In this document: positions 692 through 63,393 of the stretch, piece after piece
How the letters are laid out: every line of letters starts with the position of its first letter
How positions within the stretch are numbered: position 1 is the first letter of the stretch
From: an uncultured virus (IMG/VR IMGVR_UViG_2822368973_000001)
Taxonomy: Duplodnaviria > Heunggongvirae > Uroviricota > Caudoviricetes
IMG/VR virus record: IMGVR_UViG_2822368973_000001
Location: 1 to 64,000 of that record
Direction: 5' to 3' (one strand)
Length of the DNA: 64,000 nt
Made by a program: the position numbers and the translations under genes
Notes under the pieces: generated by a model
Told to the model about the DNA's origin: nothing
Databases searched by the model: none
What the model saw: the letters and a program-made list of their open reading frames with translations, nothing else

Positions 692-1006
692 ATGGCGCAA
701 TTAACTTTCTTACCTAAAATTGATCGCAAAGCAACGCAGGCTCGTTTAGAAGAGGTTCTTGAAAATGTTCGTATTTATAGACAATTTGGGATGATTAGAC
801 ATGAAATGAAGGTTACAGCATCTAGCGAGGTAAGATATCATGGTCCAACAAATATGGTAGGGAAGCCAGCAGAAGATATTGCTTTAGCAAATGTTGGTAT
901 GAGTGAGCGTACGTATAGACGAAATAGATCTAGTGCTTTTTATAAATTAGCTTTTGCTCTTAGATTAGAAGTATATGAGACTGAAGAAACTGGAGGTAAT
1001 GAATAA
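692..1006 (+). pseudogene. ArpU-family phage transcriptional regulator, internally deleted
   Basis: Paralog of 29575-30048 but lacks the central segment (IALANV joins directly to GMSERTY). Confidence 0.8.
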
Positions 1007-1549
1007 TGAATTTTGTTCAGCAGATACGTGATCCAGAAGAAATACAGCAGCTAAAAGAGTATTTTAAGGAGAAGTGTGCACGAAATTAAATTTTATTCAT
1101 TATGGGAATCAATACAGGCTTGAGAATCTCTGACATTTTAAAATTGAAGGTAGAAGATGTAAAAACGAGTCATATCTCTATGAGGGAAAAGAAAACAGGA
1201 AAACAAAAACGTATTCAAAATACTGCAGCATTAAAAAGAGAACTGAAATGGTTTATAGAAGAAAGAGAAGATCATGAATACCTATTACAAAGTAGACAAT
1301 GAAAGAATCGTCCTATCGGTCGTAGTATGGAATATAAGATATTAAGTATAGCCGCAGCAGAGTTTAGTTTAGATGAAATAGAACGCATACGCTAAGAAAG
1401 ACGTACGGGTACCATATGTACATGCAAACGAAAAACATAGCACATTAATCATGGAGATATTCAATCACTCTTCAGAGAAGGTCATGTTACGTTATATAGG
1501 TGTAAATCAAGATGCAATAGATAAAGCAATGACTAGGTTTGAAATCGAA
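1006..1549 (+). pseudogene. Small tyrosine recombinase pseudogene
   Basis: Near copy of 30048-30590 with in-frame stops TAA 1087-1089 and TGA 1300-1302 and downstream frameshifts. Confidence 0.88.
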
Positions 1550-1764
1550 TCATTGCTTTTTTCTTTTTAAATCTAGGGGTACCGTCACCGTTTTTGAAAA
1601 CCCCCATGCTAAGAGCATACAAAAATTTATACAGTTTTTGGATAATTCAGTAACAAAAGAGAACCCGAAAACCTGCGTCAGGATAGGAATGTATAAAATA
1701 ATGCATAAATCTGTAGAACAAAAAAAGGAAATTCCTTTGTCAGAGGATGGGCCCACCTTTCCTT

Positions 1765-1793
1765 GCTATCGATAATGAGACGTCATGTTAGCT
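1765..1793 (+). other. dif-like Xer recombination site (7-bp spacer)
   Basis: GCTATCGATAA-TGAGACG-TCATGTTAGCT; resembles the sites at 2430 and 63365. Confidence 0.6.
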
Positions 1794-1874
1794 TAACATG
1801 AATATAATATAAAAAAGGAATTTATAAGATTTGACGAGAATAAAATTGTACTAAAAGGATATCGGAGGTTTTTT

Positions 1875-2420
1875 ATGAAACTAGTAGGACAGCAAATATA
1901 TCTTCGACTTTACAAAATTTCTGACGCGAGCGAGTTAGCTAACTTACACACTAGAAATCGCGAATTTTTTCAACGAGTTTGTCCATTACTCCCAGAAGTC
2001 TTTTATACAGAAGAACATCAAAAAATACGCATTGAACGAGCATTAAAAAAGAAAGCTGAAGATCAAGTTTACGCTTTTGGAATCTTTTTAAAAGCAACTG
2101 ATAAACTTATCGGAGACATTTCATTAACTCAAATTGCTAGGGATCCCGCCCAAAGCTGTTATACGGGATTTACCTTAGATAGGGAGCATAGTTCAAGGGG
2201 CTATACAACAGAGGCTCTACAACTTGTTGTAGACTTTGCATTTAGAGAATTAAAACTACATAGAATTGAAGCAGGAGCTATGCCTAGCAATATAGCATCT
2301 ATTCGTGTATTAGAAAAAGTAGGATTTAAAAAAGAAGGTATAGCTAAAGAAAATGTAAAGATTAATGGCAAATGGACAGATCATCAAATATTAGCTATCA
2401 TCAACAGCCTGGATGTATAA
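1875..2420 (+). CDS. RimJ/RimL-type GNAT acetyltransferase
   Basis: RGYTTEAL, LHRIEAGAMPSNIASIRVLEKVGFKKEG motifs; RBS GGAGG. Confidence 0.88.
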   Translation: MKLVGQQIYLRLYKISDASELANLHTRNREFFQRVCPLLPEVFYTEEHQKIRIERALKKKAEDQVYAFGIFLKATDKLIGDISLTQIARDPAQSCYTGFTLDREHSSRGYTTEALQLVVDFAFRELKLHRIEAGAMPSNIASIRVLEKVGFKKEGIAKENVKINGKWTDHQILAIINSLDV

Positions 2421-2429
2421 GCACATTTC

Positions 2430-2458
2430 ACTTCCGATAATGAGACGTTATGTCAACC
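2430..2458 (+). other. dif-like Xer recombination site (7-bp spacer)
   Basis: ACTTCCGATAA-TGAGACG-TTATGTCAACC; same spacer as the 1765 site. Confidence 0.7.
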
Positions 2459-2593
2459 TAACATGTATAGGATATACACTGTTCCTTATTCAACTAACTG
2501 GCAGGTTAGTTGAAGTGTATTTTGGTTAATATAGGAATTTTTGGATGCCCCCTAGAATATAAAAAATATAGATTGTATTATAGGAGGTATATA

Positions 2594-3331
2594 ATGAAAC
2601 AAAACATTTATGATAATCCGTTTTTCTTTAAAAATTATAAGTCATTACGTGAAAATGGATTTACCTTTAATGATTTTGTTGAACAGCCAGCAATTAAATC
2701 TATAATTGCTAATCTTACAGATAAGTCTGTATTAGATTTGGGATGTGGAACTGGTCATTTTTCTATGTACTGTGTAGAAAATGGTGCCTCGAAAGTTATA
2801 GGAGTGGACATCTCAAGAAATATGATTGAACAAGCTGAAATGTATAACAAAAACGAAAAAATAGATTATATGTGTGTACCAATAGAAGAACTTAATTTGC
2901 CAAATCAAAAATTCGACTTAATAACAAGTTCTTTAGTTATACATTACATAGAAGATTACTCACATCTAATTAAGAAAATAAGAGATCTGTTAAAAAATGA
3001 TGGTGAATTTATCTTTTCAACAGAACATCCAATAGTAACAGCTCGAAAGGAAATGAATAATTGGTTTAAGGATAATAATGGAAACAGATTGCATTGGGCA
3101 TTAGATAATTATCAAGAAGAAGGAAAAAGAGAGGAACATTGGTGGATAGATGGTGTTGTTAAATATCACAGAACAATTTCAACATTAATTAATACTCTTA
3201 TAGACAACGGTTTTGTAATTGAGAAAATTATTGAGCCAGAGTCAACTCCAACAGGATTAGAAAAAATGCCAGAATTAATAAATGAAAAACGGAGACCATC
3301 TTCTATTATCATTAAATCAAGAAAATATTGA
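2594..3331 (+). CDS. Class I SAM-dependent methyltransferase
   Basis: VLDLGCGTG motif I, FDLITSSLVIHY; start placed at ATG after AGGAGG. Confidence 0.9.
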   Translation: MKQNIYDNPFFFKNYKSLRENGFTFNDFVEQPAIKSIIANLTDKSVLDLGCGTGHFSMYCVENGASKVIGVDISRNMIEQAEMYNKNEKIDYMCVPIEELNLPNQKFDLITSSLVIHYIEDYSHLIKKIRDLLKNDGEFIFSTEHPIVTARKEMNNWFKDNNGNRLHWALDNYQEEGKREEHWWIDGVVKYHRTISTLINTLIDNGFVIEKIIEPESTPTGLEKMPELINEKRRPSSIIIKSRKY

Positions 3332-3351
3332 GATTAAACCCTCGTTGATTA

Positions 3352-3399
3352 ACTTCCACTTTCGAGAATTATGTAAATAAGCTGTCCATATGGGCAGCT
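3352..3399 (+). other. dif-like site (6-bp spacer) fused to a terminator hairpin
   Basis: ACTTCCACTTT-CGAGAA-TTATGTAAATA then AGCTGTCCATATGGGCAGCT and a T-rich tract; repeated at 31958 and 63020. Confidence 0.6.
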
Positions 3400-3465
3400 T
3401 TATTTTATGTTCCCGCATAGCGTAGGTTATTTTGAAAAATGCTGGTGGTATCCCTCCCTATACAG

Positions 3466-3575: not shown

Positions 3576-3608
3576 GTCTATGCTATTAACAAGAAAGTGG
3601 TGGTTGTG

Positions 3609-4562
3609 ATGAGGGAAAGATGTCCGGTTTGTCAAAACTCTATTGAGGAACCCCAATTAGTAGGAGTGGGAGGGGGACGTGCAGAGCAATATAAATGTGA
3701 GAATTGTGGCACATTTTCCATGATTGAAGAAGCGAGAATCGAATTAAATGTAGAGCAGAAGAGAAAACTTTCTGCAATTTTAAGAAAGAGAAACATTAGA
3801 GGGATGGGAAAAATAATGATTTTTCTTAATCGACCAGATGAAAATCTTTCAGAATTTCCGTATCCTATTTATCTTTTAGCGGATCTATTAAGTGAATATC
3901 CAGATAGTGCTTCTGATAGATTGGATGAGTCATTAATAAACTTAGCTAAATTGTCAAAATTTCCAGGTGACCCATTATATATTCGTGAATCAGATAAATC
4001 TCTATTTTTTGTACAGAGTGTTCATTTGTTGGAAATGAAATATATAGCGAACCAATTATTTCAGGACGAATTAATTGAGATATCTAAGCTATCTGCAGCA
4101 GATTTTCCTGCACATATTACAGTTACAGCAAAAGGGTGGAATCGTATTGCAGAATTAGAAAAGGGAAGAGAAGCGGATACTAAGCAGGTGTTTGTCGCTA
4201 TGTCATTTAGTCCAAAAATGGATAGTCTATATCAGAATGCAATTGCAACGGCTGTAAAAGAAGCAGGTTATGAGCCTATTCGAATTGATAAAGTGGAACA
4301 CAATAACAAAATTGATGATGAGATTATAGTTAAAATAAGACAAAGTAAATTTATAATTGCAGATTTTACTGAACATAGAGGTGACGTCTATTTTGAAGCC
4401 GGCTATGCAATGGGACTTGGTAAACCTGTAATATGGACTTGCAGGGAAAATGACTTAGCAAATCTGCATTTTGATACTAGACAATATAGCCATATTGTTT
4501 GGAAAGATGAGAGGGAATTAAAAGATTCATTACTTAATAGAATAAGAGCTACAATCAATTAA
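3609..4562 (+). CDS. Zn-ribbon protein with C-terminal nucleoside deoxyribosyltransferase/TIR-like domain
   Basis: CPVC...CENC N-terminus; QVFVAMSF, SKFIIADFT, VYFEAGYAMGLGKPVI C-terminus. Confidence 0.65.
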   Translation: MRERCPVCQNSIEEPQLVGVGGGRAEQYKCENCGTFSMIEEARIELNVEQKRKLSAILRKRNIRGMGKIMIFLNRPDENLSEFPYPIYLLADLLSEYPDSASDRLDESLINLAKLSKFPGDPLYIRESDKSLFFVQSVHLLEMKYIANQLFQDELIEISKLSAADFPAHITVTAKGWNRIAELEKGREADTKQVFVAMSFSPKMDSLYQNAIATAVKEAGYEPIRIDKVEHNNKIDDEIIVKIRQSKFIIADFTEHRGDVYFEAGYAMGLGKPVIWTCRENDLANLHFDTRQYSHIVWKDERELKDSLLNRIRATIN

Positions 4563-12280: not shown

Positions 12281-12513
12281 TAATATACAACAAAAATAAA
12301 AAACTTGGAAGAGTAGCTAAGAAGAGACAATAGATAGATAAATTAAGAAATCTTATTTCTAATAGATCTACAATACGACAGTAGTATTTTAGGTTTAGTG
12401 GGGAAATATCGACGAATATATACAATAGTATCTGTTTATGTTTTAAAAAATAAGTTAAAATATATATGGTAAATTATTCATTACTTTTCGTTTTTTACCG
12501 TAGGAGTGAGAAT

Positions 12514-13566
12514 GTGATTAAAAAAGCAATTAACTTTATTTTATCTGAAGTAGACGTACCAGCACTTAATCACCCTGGGATAAGTAAGGAGATTAAGTAT
12601 AAAGTTACAAATACTAAGGTTAGAATTAAATCTTTTAAGAAGATAGGTGATTTGAAAATTTATATGAATAGATTTTCGGATTCCTCTGAGAGTGGAAATA
12701 ATTTAGTTTATAACTCGCTAAAGAATAAAGGACTGAAAACTTACGAGGATATATATCCTGAGTTCAAAGAGAAGTTTCAACGTTATTTTGATGATATTAC
12801 AGTCTTAAATGATTTTGTTATAGGGAAGACATATACATCGTGGGATATCTCTAATTTTGCTAGAGATTATGATAATAGAAAAGGTATTTATTTAATAGGA
12901 GAGCCCTCTAATTTAAGCGCAATTTTTATTAAAGTGACTTTAGAGAATGGGAAATATGCTAATGAATGGTTAGAAGAAAATAGAGTCCTGAAATATTATT
13001 TTAAAAATAGAGCAAATAAGTTTAAGTTAGAGTACCAAGATAATTTTGCTATTTATAGTACGAAAAACACCAATATACCAATCTATGTATTTATTAAAGA
13101 AGGTACAAGCTGTGTATTACATGGTGTATTTAAATATGTGCAATATATTGAAGAAGTAGATGGTTCAAAGTGGTTTGAATTAGAGAAAATTGACCATTAT
13201 GAAACTTTACATACTTTAACTAATCAAGAATATGAGAATGACTTGGATATAAAAGTAACGAAATCTCAAATTATAAATAGCTCTGCTCGTAAAGAGCGCT
13301 TAAAACAGGCGGTCAGGAAACCTGAAGTAGTTGAAGTGGTTACTACTCAATATAAAAGAAATCCAGACGTTATTGCTGAAGTATTAGAGAGAGCGAACGG
13401 ATATTGTGAGGAATGCAAACAAGAGGCGCCATTTAAAAGAGCTAAAGATGGTACGCCGTATTTAGAGGTCCATCATGTTGTTCCTCTTGCACAGGGAGGA
13501 GAGGATTCAGTAGAGAATGCTGTAGCCCTATGTCCAAACTGTCATAGGAAAGCGCATTATGGTTAG
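12514..13566 (+). CDS. HNH endonuclease, McrA-like C-terminus
   Basis: CEEC...LEVHHVVPLAQGGEDSVENAVALCPNCHRKAH; GTG start after AGGAG. Confidence 0.85.
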   Translation: MIKKAINFILSEVDVPALNHPGISKEIKYKVTNTKVRIKSFKKIGDLKIYMNRFSDSSESGNNLVYNSLKNKGLKTYEDIYPEFKEKFQRYFDDITVLNDFVIGKTYTSWDISNFARDYDNRKGIYLIGEPSNLSAIFIKVTLENGKYANEWLEENRVLKYYFKNRANKFKLEYQDNFAIYSTKNTNIPIYVFIKEGTSCVLHGVFKYVQYIEEVDGSKWFELEKIDHYETLHTLTNQEYENDLDIKVTKSQIINSSARKERLKQAVRKPEVVEVVTTQYKRNPDVIAEVLERANGYCEECKQEAPFKRAKDGTPYLEVHHVVPLAQGGEDSVENAVALCPNCHRKAHYG

Positions 13567-13609
13567 AAAAATGTATTGTAAATGGATATAAATATAAAGG
13601 AGAGGGAAA

Positions 13610-14374
13610 ATGGCAGACAGAGATGAAAATGATATTAGGGATGGGAAATTTGAAGACACAGCTGAATTTTTCATAGCAGAAATGTTGTTTCATAGACACT
13701 CAGATTCATTTTTAGATAAATATAATCATATAAGAGAAGATATTGAACAAGCAATAAGTAAAAGAATGGGAGAATTAAAATTCAAGGTATCTGAACCGGA
13801 GAAGAAAAGGTTGGAAGCAGGATCTTTGAATAAAGCTTTAAAGTCAAGTTTGAGAAGTGTAGAGGGGCTAAAATTTGAAGTTGAATGTAAAGAGGGAGTA
13901 TTATATGACTCACCCAAAACAGGAGGTTTCGATTTTGCAATATTTGACAATCAATACAATGTAGTGAATTTTAGAAATTTTTGTTTTGGAAGAAGAGCAA
14001 TATATAAAGGTGAGGCTGAATGGAATAGACAATTACAAAATAGAGAAGAATGGAAAGATGTTGCTGAAACATTGGAATTACCTGAAATGAAGAGACGAGG
14101 TGAGGATTTATATCATAAAAAAGCAAAGCCTACAGTAGTTGGCGAAATTCAATTTGGGAACTGGGGTTTAGGCTATTATGACATAATTAAAGTAATTCAT
14201 TTAGAAGAATCTCTAGAGGTTGATCTTTTAATATATATTACAGCAACAGGTAATTTACAAACTTATTTAAGTAAAAGTATAGTAACCTTTAATAGAATGA
14301 AAAAAACCTTGGAGCAATATGGAGGAATTGTAAAGGTCCCAGTATGGCTTATAGGACTTGATATAAGGGAGTAA
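13610..14374 (+). CDS. BglII/BstYI-like restriction endonuclease fold protein
   Basis: GGFDF...VGEIQFGN (D...ExQ active-site pattern). Confidence 0.6.
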   Translation: MADRDENDIRDGKFEDTAEFFIAEMLFHRHSDSFLDKYNHIREDIEQAISKRMGELKFKVSEPEKKRLEAGSLNKALKSSLRSVEGLKFEVECKEGVLYDSPKTGGFDFAIFDNQYNVVNFRNFCFGRRAIYKGEAEWNRQLQNREEWKDVAETLELPEMKRRGEDLYHKKAKPTVVGEIQFGNWGLGYYDIIKVIHLEESLEVDLLIYITATGNLQTYLSKSIVTFNRMKKTLEQYGGIVKVPVWLIGLDIRE

Positions 14375-14482
14375 GTTGCTAAAATGTAAATGTTAAATAT
14401 GCTAAATAAGTTCATCGCTTTATAAAGGTTTTTATTTTATATAATGAGATTTGAAAAATATAAATATAGGTGGAGATGAAAC

Positions 14483-15952
14483 ATGACCAATTCATCAGTA
14501 AATATATTGACAACAACCATTACTGTTAATCCCTCAGATAATATATTTAAAGAACTGGGTAACAATACATATGATTTTAATGATTTGATTTCGGAGTTTA
14601 TTGATAATTCGATAGGAGCTATGGATTCAGAAAGAGTTCTTGAAGTTTATGTAGAAATTGGATTATCTAAAACAAGAGAAGAAGAATCATATTTTCTAAT
14701 TAGGGATAATGCTAAGGGAATTGTAAGGGAGTTTTTAGGGAAGGCACTTTCACCAGGTGGAACATCTGGTGGGAGAACTCTTAACGAGCATGGGTTAGGT
14801 ATGAAACAAGCTATTGCAGCATTAGGGGAATTAGAGCATCTAATTACAAAAACTAAAGAAGATAAACAGGCAGTTTGTATAAATAAGTTGAAATTTGGGG
14901 ATATAGAAGGTACTTTAATCGATGTACCTTGGAATCATGGAACTGAAATTAAAGTTAAAAGAATTAATAATATAGTACCAACTTCATCACAGAAATTTAC
15001 ACAATCAGTACAAGTTTATTTGGGAGCTAGATACAGAAGATTTTTACGCGAGAATAATAAGAAAATGCAATTAAATATTAAGTTATTAAACCTGGATGTA
15101 AACAATGGGACACCAAAGATTACAAATGAATGGGAAATCAAAGAAATTAACCCTGTTTATTTTCATCCCAATAGGAGAATAAATGAGCCAGTAACTAATA
15201 GAAAGATAATTAAGGGAAAAGGTTGGGAAGCAGCATTTACGTTTGGTTATGCTCCTACCGACAAACAATATGAAGATTTAGGACTAGAGCCTCCTAAAAA
15301 ATATGAGCCATACTATGTATCTATCAATAAACAAGGTTTTGATATTTTAAATAACGATAGAGTAATTAAATTTCATCAATTAAGTGAAATAGGAGTGGTA
15401 GAGACTAGACATAATCGATTTAATTATATTAGAGGAGAAATCGATTTAATTAGAGGATTTACTACAGCAATTACTAAGAATAATATAATAATGGATAATC
15501 ATTTTTCGGAACTTATACAGGAAGTTAAAGATATTTTAAATAAAAATGATTTCTTTGATAGAAAAAGTTATCCAGATGAAATACCCGAAGTGTTATTAAG
15601 AGATAGACTAGTACATCATTTTAAAACCAGTAAACTTTATGGGAAAAAAGATGTTAGAACAGAGTACCCAGTTCAAGCTTTAGGGGGATTTATAGATATT
15701 TTAGCAGATAATGAAGCATGGGAATTAAAAATAGGAGATGCTGATGGGTTAGCGGTATACCAATTATTTGCTTATATGGACATGGGCAAGATTGATAATG
15801 GCTATCTTGTAGCGAAATCGTTTAAGACAGGTGCAGAATCTGCAGCTAAATTTATAGAAGAAAACCATAATAAAAAAATTGATTTAATTTTAAGAGATGA
15901 ACTGCCAATAAATCTCCCTCCGACTGAAGAAGAATTGAAAAAATATTACTAG
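14483..15952 (+). CDS. GHKL (MORC/HSP90-like) ATPase with C-terminal PD-(D/E)xK-like domain
   Basis: ISEFIDNS, RDNAKGI, HGLGMK, HGTEI; C-terminal IDILADNEAWELK...YQLFAY. Confidence 0.75.
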   Translation: MTNSSVNILTTTITVNPSDNIFKELGNNTYDFNDLISEFIDNSIGAMDSERVLEVYVEIGLSKTREEESYFLIRDNAKGIVREFLGKALSPGGTSGGRTLNEHGLGMKQAIAALGELEHLITKTKEDKQAVCINKLKFGDIEGTLIDVPWNHGTEIKVKRINNIVPTSSQKFTQSVQVYLGARYRRFLRENNKKMQLNIKLLNLDVNNGTPKITNEWEIKEINPVYFHPNRRINEPVTNRKIIKGKGWEAAFTFGYAPTDKQYEDLGLEPPKKYEPYYVSINKQGFDILNNDRVIKFHQLSEIGVVETRHNRFNYIRGEIDLIRGFTTAITKNNIIMDNHFSELIQEVKDILNKNDFFDRKSYPDEIPEVLLRDRLVHHFKTSKLYGKKDVRTEYPVQALGGFIDILADNEAWELKIGDADGLAVYQLFAYMDMGKIDNGYLVAKSFKTGAESAAKFIEENHNKKIDLILRDELPINLPPTEEELKKYY

Positions 15953-28080: not shown

Positions 28081-28117
28081 TAGCTACTTCAGCTAGCTAC
28101 TTCAGCTAGCTACTTCA
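28081..28117. repeat. 13-bp tandem repeat TAGCTACTTCAGC, about 3 copies
   Basis: Read directly. Confidence 0.85.
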
Positions 28118-28125
28118 TTCAGCAC

Positions 28126-28250
28126 AACAAAGCAGCTAGCTGAAATAGCTAACTGCTCTATTGTACAATTTTAGAAGTTTCACTGGATACAGATATAAGT
28201 TGTAACGAAAAGTTACAACTATAGTATAAACAGAATTCGAAAAAATATGC
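28126..28250 (-). ncRNA. Candidate sRNA unit, sigmaG-type promoter
   Basis: GCATA-17-TATACTA; 5' hairpin AGTTGTAAC/GTTACAACT; AGCAGTTAGC terminator. Confidence 0.62.
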
Positions 28251-28285
28251 AGGAAAGAAAACTAAATTAAAACTTCATTCAGCAC

Positions 28286-28406
28286 AACAAAGCAATCAGC
28301 CTAATGAGCTAACTGCTTGTTGTACAAAAGAAAATTAGGCCCTACAAGTTAAGATGTGTAACTTAGAGTTACAGTTATAGTGTTAGCAGGACTGGAAATG
28401 TTATAC
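28286..28406 (-). ncRNA. Candidate sRNA unit, paralog of 28126-28250
   Basis: GTATA-17-AACACTA; TGTAAC/GTTACA hairpin; same ACTTCATTCAGCACAACAAAGCA flank. Confidence 0.6.
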
Positions 28407-28452
28407 GGGGATTAATACAACAAAAATTTCATTTTGTAGAAATAAGAAAATT

Positions 28453-28550
28453 AAAAAAGAGCACCATGCATAAGTGCTCTTTAAGATAGGAGGTAACACT
28501 TTGAGCTGAGGCTAGGTTAGAAGTATATGGTGTAAAAAAAGAAATAAGAA
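28453..28550 (-). ncRNA. Candidate sRNA unit, sigmaE/K-type promoter
   Basis: TCTTATT-13-CATATACT; core contains UUACCUCCUAU; GAGCAC terminator. Confidence 0.62.
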
Positions 28551-28575
28551 CAAAATTTTATTATTAGTTCAATAT

Positions 28576-28705
28576 AAAAAAGCAGTTAGCAAAAAGCTAA
28601 CTGCTAAGCCCTCAGAGAAAGAGGAAAAGAACATTACAGAGGTCACTGTGAATTCAAGCTGTATCAGCCCATTTATAGTATTGGACAGAATTTAGAATTT
28701 TATTC
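28576..28705 (-). ncRNA. Candidate sRNA unit, sigmaG-type promoter
   Basis: GAATA-18-AATACTA; CUUUUCCUCUUUC; perfect AGCAGTTAGC hairpin with U tract. Confidence 0.62.
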
Positions 28706-28714
28706 GAATAAACT

Positions 28715-28834
28715 AAAAAGAGCAGCTAGCAAAAGCTAACTGCTCACCTCTCGACCAAGAGAGCTAGAGTGGGAAGAATTTAAAATAACCTTTTAAATTC
28801 TTGCATAGTATCGGAAAAAATTAGAATTTTATTC
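28715..28834 (-). ncRNA. Candidate sRNA unit, sigmaG-type promoter
   Basis: GAATA-17-GATACTA; 5' hairpin AAGAATTTAAAA/TTTTAAATTCTT; GAGCAGTTAGC terminator. Confidence 0.6.
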
Positions 28835-28983
28835 ACGTAAAACTTAAATTAGGAAGTTCAATAATTGAATGTATCTATAGCATAGACAAGGTTTAAAAAT
28901 TTATTCAAGGGAAATAAGGAATGGGTACTTATTGAAAAAAGGCAGTCAAGGAGTACTTCAAGAAGCAAGAGTTGGAACGCAAT

Positions 28984-29076
28984 AAAAAGCAGTTAGCAAA
29001 AGCTAACTGCTCGAATCATGGAATGTGTTTAAGAAATGGGTTGTCTACAGTATTGACGTAATGTTGAGTTTTATTC
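28984..29076 (-). ncRNA. Candidate sRNA unit, sigmaG-type promoter
   Basis: GAATA-17-AATACTG; AGCAGTTAGC terminator. Confidence 0.6.
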
Positions 29077-30590: not shown

Positions 30591-30700
30591 TCATTGCTTA
30601 TTTCTTTTTAAATCTAGGGTATTGCAGCATTTTGGAAAAAATAAAAAAGACTCGACCGTTTTTTGGTCAAGTCCTGTATTAAATTACAAACTATTTCCCT

Positions 30701-31840
30701 TTAAGCACCAGGAATATTTGGAACTAAATTCTGAACGATTTTGATAAGATTATTTGTGATATCTTGTTGTTGAGATGTAAGTGTATCGGATCCATCAGTA
30801 AATACTGTAACGCAGATTGGACAAGCTTCGATATGAATCCCCAATAGATTAATAGCTAGACCACCTGGTATATCCACAGTAAGAATCGATGTGGAACCTT
30901 CAGGAGGAGTACAAGTCTGACAGTTAGTTTCAAGAGCCATAGAGTCACCTTCTTTCTTGATAGAGTTATTATATAAATATGTTCGAAGATACTCAAAGGA
31001 CAAAGGTATTTGTACAAGCTTCGAAAATTGTGTTAGTGACTCAGATTTACCCCCAATGAACTCAAATCCTTCAGAAGATGTTACAATTATTGGATTAGTA
31101 TCGGTATCGTGTACAATGAAAATTCCACCAAGCTTGGTGAATTCATCAATGATTCCTCCTGGTTGCATTAATTCCATGACGTCCAGATCAGTAATATTCC
31201 CTTGAATTCCGATCCAAACACACCAGTAATCCGCTGCCAGTTGTTTACCTGTAGTGTATTGATCTTTGATAATTGATGGAGATATCTGCACAACAGTATA
31301 TTGAGTGAGTGACCAAAGTTGTTTGGCGAAGTCATAGGAAGCAACATCATTCTCAAGCAGTAAGACGCCCTTACCAAAAATGAAAGTGCTACTAGGACAA
31401 TTCATACTGGTTGTCTCAGTAGTAGAAACTGTTTTATTTATATCCAACGTATAATCATTGGATCCCTTTAAATTTGTCATTTGAACCACTGGTTCAGTAA
31501 CGGTGAGACAACTATCCGAACTCATGATTCCGTCTAATCTTGCAAAAATTTGAGCTTCCCCAGTATTAATTGCTGTAGTCAAACCTTTTGTTTCTTCCTC
31601 ATTTGAAACTATTGCACTTGAAAGATTGCTAGAGTACCACTCTACAAGTTTTGTAATGTCCCTAGTTGATTTGTCAGAATACGTACCTGTCGCAGTAAAC
31701 TGATGGCTCAAACTTGAACAAAGAGATAAAGTCTTAGGATCTATCTTGATGGAAACCAAGACAGATATTCTTTTTTCGTAACATTCTTTCTCTTTTGGGA
31801 TAAACAGAATAGGAGGGTTAAATTGATTGGAAGTGTTCAT
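30701..31840 (-). CDS. Ig-like (Big_2) domain protein, possibly fused to a downstream small ORF
   Basis: FTATGTYSD..RDIT..VEWYSSN Ig motif; internal RBS and ATG at 30940. Confidence 0.65.
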   Translation of the reverse strand: MNTSNQFNPPILFIPKEKECYEKRISVLVSIKIDPKTLSLCSSLSHQFTATGTYSDKSTRDITKLVEWYSSNLSSAIVSNEEETKGLTTAINTGEAQIFARLDGIMSSDSCLTVTEPVVQMTNLKGSNDYTLDINKTVSTTETTSMNCPSSTFIFGKGVLLLENDVASYDFAKQLWSLTQYTVVQISPSIIKDQYTTGKQLAADYWCVWIGIQGNITDLDVMELMQPGGIIDEFTKLGGIFIVHDTDTNPIIVTSSEGFEFIGGKSESLTQFSKLVQIPLSFEYLRTYLYNNSIKKEGDSMALETNCQTCTPPEGSTSILTVDIPGGLAINLLGIHIEACPICVTVFTDGSDTLTSQQQDITNNLIKIVQNLVPNIPGA

Positions 31841-31957
31841 TTGTGTTAGCCTCACTTTCTTTATCAATACATTTAATCAATATATGTTACATACAGAACT
31901 CGGTTTGGACTTGACCGCTCCCCTGATTATTTAGTTCATTTTAATCTGAAACTATTC

Positions 31958-32005
31958 ACTTCCAGCAACGATAATTATGTAAATAAGCTGTCCAAATGGG
32001 CAGCT
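31958..32005 (+). other. dif-like site plus terminator hairpin
   Basis: ACTTCCAGCAA-CGATAA-TTATGTAAATA then AGCTGTCCAAATGGGCAGCT. Confidence 0.68.
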
Positions 32006-32066
32006 TATTTTATTTTTCCTCATAGCGTAGGTTATTTTGCAAAATACTGGTGGTATCCCTATACAG

Positions 32067-34694: not shown

Positions 34695-34722
34695 TGTTTA
34701 CATAAGTAACCTTATCGGTAGT
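34695..34722 (-). other. dif-like site
   Basis: Minus strand ACTACCGATAA-GGTTAC-TTATGTAAACA. Confidence 0.65.
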
Positions 34723-61908: not shown

Positions 61909-62967
61909 ATGAAAAAACCAATCAAACTATTTAGCTCATTATTTATGACTCTATTACTCTTATTTTCGTTTGCTACGGCTTCATTTGCCGATAGAGTACT
62001 AATCATCCAAGACTTACCGAAACAAGCATATCGCTACGGTGTGGGCGCTTATGAGGGCGTTGTAGCACATAGTACTGCAACACCAGAAGCACCAGCAATT
62101 AATATTAGAAATTACGAAGCTAGAACATGGAGAAATGCATTTGTACATTATGCTGTAGATTGGAACGAAACAATTCAAATTGCTGATACTAAATATGTTG
62201 CTTATGGTGCTGGACCAGCTGCAAATAAAAGATTTGTTCACGTAGAACTTTCTGAAACTAGCAACCCAGATAAATTTAAATCTTCTTACGAACGTTATGT
62301 AAAACTATTAGCTAAGATTTTAAAAGATAGAGGGATTCATCCAAGCAAAGGTTTATGGACACATAAAGATATTACTTACAAATTAGGTGGAACTGACCAT
62401 GAAGATCCGATTAATTATCTTCGCAGTCATGGTGTATCAGAATCACAATTCAGAGCGGACGTACAAAAGGCTTATGAAGGCGCAACAGTTATAGTTAAAC
62501 CAAAACCACAAGAACCATCTCAAAACGTTGTAGGCGCAACAGGAGTAGCTTACATTGATGGATTTAACGTAAATCTAAGAAGTGGACCATCAACAAATCA
62601 TGGTACTATCCGTCAATTAAATAAAGGGGAATCATATCAAGTGTGGGGAAAACAAGGTGATTGGTTAAATCTTGGCGGTAACCAATGGATTTATAACAAC
62701 CCTTCTTACATTCGATATGAAGGGGAACAAACTAATACTTCAAGTTCTGTAGTAGGAAAACGTGTTGTTTCTAAAGTGGACGACCTTCGTTTCTATGACT
62801 CTGCTTCTTGGTCTGATAAAGATGTAGCAGGAACGGTAGATGAAGGGCTTGGATTTACTATTGACGCTAAAGTATCAGTGAATGGTTCACCACAATACAA
62901 AGTACACAACAGTAAAGGCACAACATACTATGTAACTGCAAATGAAGCCTATGTGCATGTAAAGTAG
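61909..62967 (+). CDS. N-acetylmuramoyl-L-alanine amidase endolysin with signal peptide and SH3b domain
   Basis: VAHSTA, AFVH, TDHEDP; NVNLRSGPST; ATASFA cleavage site. Confidence 0.9.
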   Translation: MKKPIKLFSSLFMTLLLLFSFATASFADRVLIIQDLPKQAYRYGVGAYEGVVAHSTATPEAPAINIRNYEARTWRNAFVHYAVDWNETIQIADTKYVAYGAGPAANKRFVHVELSETSNPDKFKSSYERYVKLLAKILKDRGIHPSKGLWTHKDITYKLGGTDHEDPINYLRSHGVSESQFRADVQKAYEGATVIVKPKPQEPSQNVVGATGVAYIDGFNVNLRSGPSTNHGTIRQLNKGESYQVWGKQGDWLNLGGNQWIYNNPSYIRYEGEQTNTSSSVVGKRVVSKVDDLRFYDSASWSDKDVAGTVDEGLGFTIDAKVSVNGSPQYKVHNSKGTTYYVTANEAYVHVK

Positions 62968-63019
62968 GGGAACCGCCAGCATCTTGGAATAAAATCATGC
63001 TAAGCAAAAAAATAAAATA

Positions 63020-63067
63020 AGCTGCCCATATGGACAGCTTATTTACATAATTATCGTTATTGGAAGT
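63020..63067 (-). other. dif-like site plus terminator hairpin
   Basis: Minus strand ACTTCCAATAA-CGATAA-TTATGTAAATA-AGCTGTCCATATGGGCAGCT. Confidence 0.7.
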
Positions 63068-63078
63068 TACTTTTTGTT

Positions 63079-63261
63079 TTATTTTTTCTCACTAATTTTA
63101 AGTCGTTTTGCATTTATGAAAAATGCGCTCCCAATTACGAATATAACAGAAGAGATATACATTGTTATCCCTGAATATTCATTATCAAATATTGTAGTAT
63201 TAAGCAAATTAACAAACACCATCAATATAAGTGATATGTACAATCCATTAATATATTTCAC
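63079..63261 (-). CDS. Small two-TM membrane protein inside a dif-like cassette
   Basis: RBS GGGAGGG, GTG start, two hydrophobic helices. Confidence 0.7.
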   Translation of the reverse strand: MKYINGLYISLILMVFVNLLNTTIFDNEYSGITMYISSVIFVIGSAFFINAKRLKISEKK

Positions 63262-63364
63262 TTATGTCCCTCCCTTACTTTTTTCTTTTCTTCTTTTTCC
63301 CTATTTTACCATTTTAAAAAAGTGATATGTTGTTTGATTTTGGTTGTATATCGTATTCATGTAA

Positions 63365-63393
63365 AGTTAACATAACGTCCTATTATCGGTAGC
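63365..63393 (-). other. dif-like site (7-bp spacer)
   Basis: Minus strand GCTACCGATAA-TAGGACG-TTATGTTAACT. Confidence 0.7.

Follow-up and report, generated by a model that had tools for sequence, protein, structure and literature searches.

How single accessory genes come to stand in series between dif-like sites, and what carries such a series from one replicon to another, is the question raised by the left part of a Bacillus cereus-group prophage. The window analysed here, 64,000 nucleotides in length, comes from a 70.7-kb prophage contig. A preliminary description of it had reported three directly oriented dif-like sites that enclose genes for a GNAT and a methyltransferase, with a terminator at the end, and all of these parts are present. 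They are the inside of a larger unit, whose Tn4430-type carrier that description missed. Comparison with related loci makes it probable that the unit is a non-autonomous shell of Tn4430-type inverted repeats (IRs), in which the host XerC and XerD (CodV/RipX) would swap cassettes while a Tn4430-type transposase would move the shell in trans.

The whole unit occupies positions 1576-3454 and consists of a left IR, a leader, a start site (S), two cassettes with an internal hybrid site (B) between them, an end site (E), a terminator and a right IR. No transposase or recombinase gene lies within it. The left IR is a 38-bp repeat of the Tn3 family, Tn4430 type, at 1576-1613 on the plus strand (IR matrix score 41), and is 77% identical to the end of a 4149-bp transposon encoding TnpI and TnpA in locus L255; the right IR, at 3416-3454 on the minus strand (score 47), is 81% identical to that end. 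The leader (1614-1764, plus strand) belongs to a conserved class of about 150-190 bp, recognized by conserved blocks in 50 aligned leaders, and ends in a terminator-like hairpin that is degenerate in the window copy. Across 95 leaders the last 62 nt fold with a median z of -2.8 against mononucleotide shuffles, and 58% fall below -2. Its position on the XerC-arm side makes the leader a candidate cer-like Xer accessory region.

The three dif-like sites were confirmed, all on the plus strand. Site S (1765-1793), GCTATCGATAA TGAGACG TCATGTTAGCT, has a platform-type left arm, a 7-bp spacer and a XerD-type right arm. Site B (2430-2458), ACTTCCGATAA TGAGACG TTATGTCAACC, joins an end-type left arm to a start-type 7-bp spacer and right arm, and site E (3352-3379), ACTTCCACTTT CGAGAA TTATGTAAATA, has a cassette-type left arm, a 6-bp platform spacer and a XerD-type right arm. 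As had been described, the first two sites have in common both the spacer TGAGACG and the downstream TAACATG.ATA. Cassette 1 carries the gene for a RimJ/RimL-like GNAT acetyltransferase (1875-2420, plus strand; PF13302, E 1e-26), cassette 2 the gene for a class I SAM-dependent methyltransferase (2594-3331, plus strand, 29% GC; PF08241, E 2e-23), and an intrinsic terminator hairpin follows at 3379-3400 on the plus strand. The element sits at a fixed point immediately 3' of a truncated ArpU-like gene, so labelled from its homologue in L372, and a broken small tyrosine integrase gene (692-1555, plus strand), the remains of a decayed prophage. Just past the element, positions 3597-4562 encode a protein of 321 aa that has a zinc finger at its N terminus and, more weakly, a nucleoside 2-deoxyribosyltransferase-like domain, and a gene of comparable size and annotation also lies downstream of the element in L372.

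Motif scans that collected viral loci (49 and 44) together with 121 loci from genomes distinguish three classes of site. The S class combines a left arm GCTACCRATAA, a 7-bp spacer ending in CG, a dif-type right arm and a dyad TGWATA-N3-TATWCA. The E class has a left arm that starts with ACTTCC and continues in a variable part, a 6-bp spacer beginning with CG, a right arm and a terminator. In the B class the left arm of E is joined to the spacer and right arm of S. In some arrays the place of B is taken by an E site and an S-like site with a linker of 77-87 bp between them; gene-free linkers of this kind, with E-type and S-like ends, connect cassettes in L018, L046, L081, L116, L129 and L172, and an additional spacer class, GTGGGG, occurs at them. 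Arm pairs, counted mostly in loci selected by the motifs, are spaced by 7 bp in 211 cases and by 6 bp in 148, with none at 3-5 or 8-13 bp, and at spacings of 6 or 7 there are 359 C-D pairs versus one C-C and one D-D pair. Chromosomal dif was found in one copy in each of three of the five genomes searched, the two without it lying outside the B. cereus group. Measured against the B. cereus-group dif, with arms of 11+11 positions, the window sites match at 7+9 (S), 9+9 (B) and 6+8 (E), which bears out their earlier reading as Xer-type sites. Of the 11 positions of the right-arm consensus, 10 agree with the host dif right arm, which many copies reproduce exactly.

The dyad 3' of the right arm is degenerate in the window at 1798-1814 (plus strand, delimited by the logo of 169 S sites) and recurs 3' of site B as ATGTATA-N3-TATACA at 2463-2478 on the plus strand (sequence and logo). 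The same logo reveals no mirror covariation in it, and the dyad does not fit ArgR, PlcR or LexA boxes. A sigma-70 scan returned fewer promoters than shuffled sequences did.

The outer limits of the unit are set by the IRs. Homology between plasmids and the window begins at 1574-1577, that is, at the 38-bp repeat GGGG...TAAG, and an IR lies about 190 bp upstream of 67 of 115 S sites and about 100 bp downstream of 69 of 83 E sites with terminator, while none of 16 B sites has one on either side. Fifty complete elements of 487-2755 bp were recovered, too short for a TnpA gene of about 990 codons. The number of sites per element is two in 35, which thus hold one cassette, three in eight, four in five, and five and one in a single element each. 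Among four Tn3-family IRs, the Tn4430-like one is nearest to 97 of the 100 element ends. The IR consensus, built before transposase loci were collected, matches the end of the transposon in L255, a 4149-bp tnpI-tnpA element between IS231-like genes that we take, from its size and proteins, to be Tn4430. Tn3 transposase domains occur in 60 of 71 genomes of the genus set, and a TnpA of the Tn4430 type would act on the shell in trans. The IRs of the window copy are only 77-81% like those of Tn4430 and may be dead. No autonomous version was seen among 20 Tn3-transposase loci, all of which lack Xer-like sites. One of them, the copy in L255 that resembles Tn4430, was rejected as an autonomous parent, since it has only the IR in common with the leader.

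Polymorphism of insertion and content is seen at the prophage locus. Phage loci were selected by the small integrase alone, and of the best 80 out of 475 the element is missing from 43 and present in 29, with four arranged otherwise and four not scored; the 29 filled loci hold 16 different contents, in agreement with the variable cassette content that had been expected. At the chromosomal copy L169 the element is flanked by a 5-bp duplication, of which the relatives L348 and L354 have one near-copy and L344 none. When 82 complete elements were reduced to 49 flank pairs, 18 abutted IS231-like ends, 12 were the phage site and 19 were informative, and among these 19 perfect 5-bp repeats were found in four (at three places; null mean 0.58) and were missing from 15. 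The window copy has no clean 5-bp duplication at its flanks, and the empty phage site displays a 2-bp overlap only. The sequences abutting the IRs in the 18 pairs (L029, L105, L174, L255 and others), which we presume to be IS231-like, adjoin them as they do in the Tn4430-like L255 copy, so that some shells may also travel within IS231/MIC231-type composites.

Inside the shell, cassettes behave as separate modules. The methyltransferase cassette stands directly behind the leader, without the GNAT gene, in L218, a B. thuringiensis plasmid, and in L212, with homology from the site onward; a 73% identical methyltransferase homologue on a Niallia plasmid (L220) has no sites. The GNAT cassette has other neighbours in L081, L219 and L100: in prophage L081 different cassettes come after it, and on the B. 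cereus plasmid L219 an E-type site does. Outside the S-E interval, plasmid loci L371 and L380 have 99.3% identity on one side and 99.5% on the other; inside it they hold different genes. Loci L169 and L346 occupy the same place in the chromosome, and their alignment breaks at S and at E; the site-class scan left the S site of L346 unscored. In L042 an extra 719-bp cassette precedes the first cassette of L010, with left flanks that are only 88% alike.

The positions at which related sites diverge were compared over site pairs that are not independent and come mostly from loci selected by the motifs themselves. For 105 pairs of 7-bp sites alike on the left side only, left-arm identity is 0.96 versus 0.77 for random pairs, and identity at spacer positions 2-5 is about random. 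For 44 pairs alike on the right side only, the left arm is random and the right arm is at 0.94 versus 0.79; 6-bp sites follow the same pattern (29 and 512 pairs). Breakpoints in these alignments thus map to the junction of left arm and spacer. The preliminary description had proposed to look for them in the spacer, and their location at the sites is supported. It had also taken the identical spacer of the first two window sites as expected after integration of a circle, an argument that does not hold, as TGAGACG is the commonest spacer and adjacent 7-bp sites have identical spacers in four of 23 pairs versus 16.5% expected by chance. With identity at chance level, spacer identity is, to judge from these pairs, not needed for exchange. 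The same cassette has different spacers in different shells.

Filled shells have the form S-cassette-E or S-cassette-B-cassette-E, and the product complementary to B was also found. A search for empty products in the 71 genomes gave 15 matches in 12 genomes, comprising three complete shells of 287-293 bp, about four partial ones and, for the rest, ordinary sites. An empty shell has a single site, in which the left arm of S is joined to the 6-bp spacer and the right arm of E; B is the reciprocal of this site, and the E spacer behind the S arm is pure in two of the three complete shells. In viral contigs the search gave one match, which was unrelated. Free circles were not found, since none of seven short loci checked, several of them whole small contigs, has terminal repeats, and the joints seen in assembled contigs of four public runs, a source uninformative on excision and expression, are all explained by other copies of the element.

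We propose that excision releases a cassette as a circle closed by a B site at its junction, and that this circle may go back either into an empty shell or into a filled one, at its S or its E site. Strands would be exchanged at the boundary of XerC arm and spacer only, and the Holliday junction would then be resolved by replication, as for the CTX and VGJ phages. With one XerC exchange followed by replication, the 7-bp and 6-bp spacers would not have to match. The Tn4430-type transposase would, in trans, move the shell entire. Host XerC and XerD are the enzymes we infer, because the right arm follows the host dif, xerD is present in all four host genomes checked and no recombinase lies near 19 of 20 non-viral elements. 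CTX integration follows a short-homology rule, with which the present sites do not clearly agree, because the first spacer base is T in the 7-bp class and C in the 6-bp class, and 48 of 236 7-bp spacers start with TAG, unlike the CGA that starts the E spacer. Two other geometries, a crossover at the CG common to both spacer classes and an inversion by a single recombinase, were discarded, as no 11-bp products, two poor 2-bp products and hardly any C-C or D-D sites were seen. Strand exchange by XerC only, resolved by replication, is known from integrative mobile elements exploiting Xer (IMEX) such as CTX and VGJ, as reported in the accessible text of PMC9226527.

Host Xer could instead act by like-with-like crossovers only, S with S and then E with E, through a cointegrate and with neither circles nor S by E exchange. 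The one-for-one swaps at fixed places in L371/L380 and L169/L346, the prevalence of one-cassette elements, the missing circles and the occurrence of one left flank with three different right flanks all agree with such a route, which the accessible part of PMC13141974 describes for the pdif modules of Acinetobacter. It cannot yield empty shells or B sites, the reciprocal products of S by E exchange, both of which exist, and the same cassette is found with different spacers in different shells. As the sole route we therefore regard it as unlikely. Exchange between shells via cointegrates would also swap cassettes and scramble flanks, and it probably operates alongside circle exchange by host XerC and XerD.

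The recombinase might also belong to a mobile element rather than being host XerC: the 180-aa phage integrase, TnpI, or a XerC-like partner of host XerD as in Tn6022, a hybrid for which the accessible text of PMC11014353 gives an Acinetobacter precedent. The small integrase matches by tblastn within 3 kb of 23 of 30 viral elements, and left arms deviate from dif, agreeing at six to nine of 11 positions. Among 20 non-viral elements, four of which have short flanks, the match occurs near one only, a count that leaves room for action in trans; 43 of the best 80 of the 475 integrase loci are without the element, and the integrase copy adjoining the window element is broken. The link between integrase and element in viral loci reflects a single insertion point. 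We give this reading a low probability, and the phage recombinase suggested earlier as a driver is itself unlikely. We hold it very improbable that the sites are passive signals for binding or dimer resolution (XDS-like XerD loading, or cointegrate resolution), with cassettes swapped by homologous recombination in leader and trailer. Both leader and trailer are conserved enough for that, in B. subtilis non-dif sites are bound by XerD alone (accessible text of PMC9226527), and a replicative mini-transposon needs a resolution site, which may have been the ancestral role. Against this stand breakpoints within a few bases of the arm/spacer boundary instead of spread over the leader, internal B junctions without long homology, outer left-arm bases that are conserved, contrary to the description of XDS, and the empty-shell hybrid, which homologous recombination could not produce.

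The cargo is diverse. In all, 166 segments fall into 108 clusters, and 72 of the 95 segments that start at a 7-bp site contain one ORF (median length 702 bp), in keeping with the single-gene cassettes first described. Of 117 cassette ORFs, 93 are directed away from the leader. Searches with NCBIfam on 125 proteins and Pfam on 91 of these identified GNATs, methyltransferases, NUDIX, DinB and HAD proteins, alpha/beta hydrolases and many unknowns. A cassette of prophage L010 (4433-5284) encodes an alpha/beta macrolide esterase (NF052610, 503 bits against a cut-off of 420), and the related prophages L001, L006, L022 and L042 carry it as well.

Of the 71 genomes in the B. cereus-group genus set, 68 have the 7-bp site, at one to 17 copies each and with no hits for reversed-pattern controls. 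A tighter pattern occurred in 13 of 401 Bacillales genomes, all 13 among the 15 members of the genus and none among the 386 other Bacillales sampled. Outside the B. cereus group there are a few site matches, in Viridibacillus and Ectobacillus; related site rows come from L099, L102, L109 and L161, which are Viridibacillus, Bacillus sp. 165, Ectobacillus and a Bacillaceae MAG. The system is not one of Bacillus prophages in particular, as had been thought, for elements are found in prophages, on plasmids and on chromosomes, and of 520 plasmid records that match the window stretch 502 are from Bacillus. One of the plasmids, the 3.4-kb pBMYdx, carries an element next to annotated genes for rep and mob only. 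Among GenBank phages phBC6A52 is the only match.

Comparison with known systems places the element among several of them. Integrons have a platform site, an intI gene, mobile cassettes that are mostly single genes, attC hairpins and a Pc promoter. The present elements resemble them in the platform site, the single-gene cassettes, the transposon carrier and a cargo of GNAT, methyltransferase, NUDIX, DinB, glyoxalase and hydrolase genes. They differ in having no intI and no recombinase inside, in two-arm sites of 28-29 bp (by sequence) instead of attC hairpins, in arrays no longer than four inter-site segments, and in a terminator-like hairpin upstream where no Pc promoter is evident. The pdif modules of Acinetobacter Rep_3/OrfX plasmids, as far as the accessible text of PMC13141974 describes them, likewise hold short accessory genes between XerC/XerD-type sites without a recombinase of their own and are replaced singly in place, and the 11-bp arms resembling host dif are a further likeness. 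Sites of pdif modules are in inverse orientation, C modules alternate with D modules, and spacers are of 6 bp and near-identical, whereas all sites here are direct, no opposite site occurs in any of the 50 complete elements, 7-bp and 6-bp classes differ, spacer identity is at chance, and the carrier of the array is a Tn3-type shell in a group of Gram-positive bacteria.

TIMEs, Tn3-derived miniature elements that are speculated in the available part of PMC4133298 to hold res sites, also have 38-bp Tn3-type IRs and no transposase, and share with our elements a small core (about 290 bp when empty here). Of the 5-bp target duplication of TIMEs, perfect copies flank our elements at three places and do not flank the window copy. 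By its sequence features the element would count as a TIME; among Tn3-derived MITEs, MITEBth3 is named in the text available of PMC6199540. The core of the element differs from those of the described TIMEs in carrying a dif-like site that accepts cassettes, TIME cargo being, in the same portion of PMC4133298, composites or a resolvase module. IMEX (CTX, VGJ and TLC phages; accessible text of PMC9226527) are alike in their use of host Xer, and XerC exchange with replication would explain the spacer mismatch; unlike them, the target here is a dispersed mobile site, with up to 17 7-bp sites per genome, rather than chromosomal dif, and the cargo is genes, not replicons. Tn6022 offers another transposon-associated dif-like site that diversifies cargo, but it is Tn7-like, with its own XerC-like recombinase, a single site and no cassette array in the account accessible in PMC11014353. 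The dispersed repeats bcr1-bcr18 occur specifically in members of the B. cereus group, bcr18 being plasmid-enriched and bcr5 310 bp long and described without IRs; these details come through the accessible text of the citing papers PMC6542083, PMC3184786 and PMC6199540, and on such descriptions leader or shell may overlap a bcr repeat. The word 'xer' is absent from the accessible text of the B. cereus mobilome papers PMC6542083 and PMC6199540. No description of a Xer-cassette system in Bacillus was found in a search of main texts, few of them from subscription journals.

Within that literature, and with the bcr repeats represented by citing papers, this variant of Xer-site cassette systems, on a Tn4430-type miniature element, is real and widespread and has not been described. 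Such systems have so far been described mainly in Acinetobacter, and a differently built one is near-universal in a group that includes food-borne pathogens and biopesticide strains. We think the chances about even for a broader proposition, that it is the B. cereus-group analogue of the integron: a gene-free, transposable platform of about 290 bp that borrows a Tn4430-type transposase and the chromosomal XerC/D to load, stack and unload roughly a hundred or more shared cassettes, an antibiotic-inactivating enzyme family included, across plasmids, prophages and chromosomes by a single strand exchange in which 7-bp and 6-bp sites, unequal as they are, recombine. If true, these bacteria would possess an integron-like gene-collecting device, and it would account for many orphan single genes in prophage 'moron' slots and on plasmids. 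Empty shell and B site would offer a reciprocal substrate pair for asking whether XerC/D act on unequal spacer lengths without FtsK-type activation, and the question arises whether a dif-like site can stand in for a Tn3-family resolvase.

Two further elements lie in the same window, near 30617-32059 and 62967-63393. The former, decayed and on the plus strand, has a remnant left IR, an E site at 31958-31985, a terminator and a right IR at 32021-32059; it lacks an S site and contains an Ig-domain gene on the minus strand, and its host prophage is active-looking. The latter, on the minus strand past the endolysin gene, has an S site at 63393, an E site at 63067, a terminator and a right IR at 62967-63004, with a left IR that was not scored and a 60-aa gene at 63079-63261. 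Its cassette recurs in L016 and L026, where a B site and then another cassette come next. With a two-arm matrix the 70.7-kb contig yields seven sites, where 10 Markov simulations lead one to expect 0.2, an excess that is partly circular because five window sites were in the training set. Four of the seven lie outside the array at 1765-3399, at 31958, 34722, 63067 and 63393. The one at 34695-34722 (minus strand) is a lone, high-scoring 6-bp dif-like site without IR upstream of the terminase small subunit gene; a weaker look-alike lies 30 bp on, and the same spacer occurs in a few other loci.

Other features of the prophage were noted in passing. Genes for an HNH endonuclease, a BglII-like endonuclease and an HSP90-like ATPase stand at 12466-15952, between an ImmA-like gene and the repressor region, and are possible defence cargo. 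In the early region a hairpin-like motif of about 28 bp (AAAGCAG.TAGCAAAAGCTAACTGCT type) occurs about five times in a long ORF-poor stretch at 28100-29010. At the right end of the prophage (contig G000:C1, 63809-65121), a 366-aa ORF that we take to be Rap/AimR-like is followed by a secreted-looking peptide of 71 aa with a repeated HGRPPAP motif.
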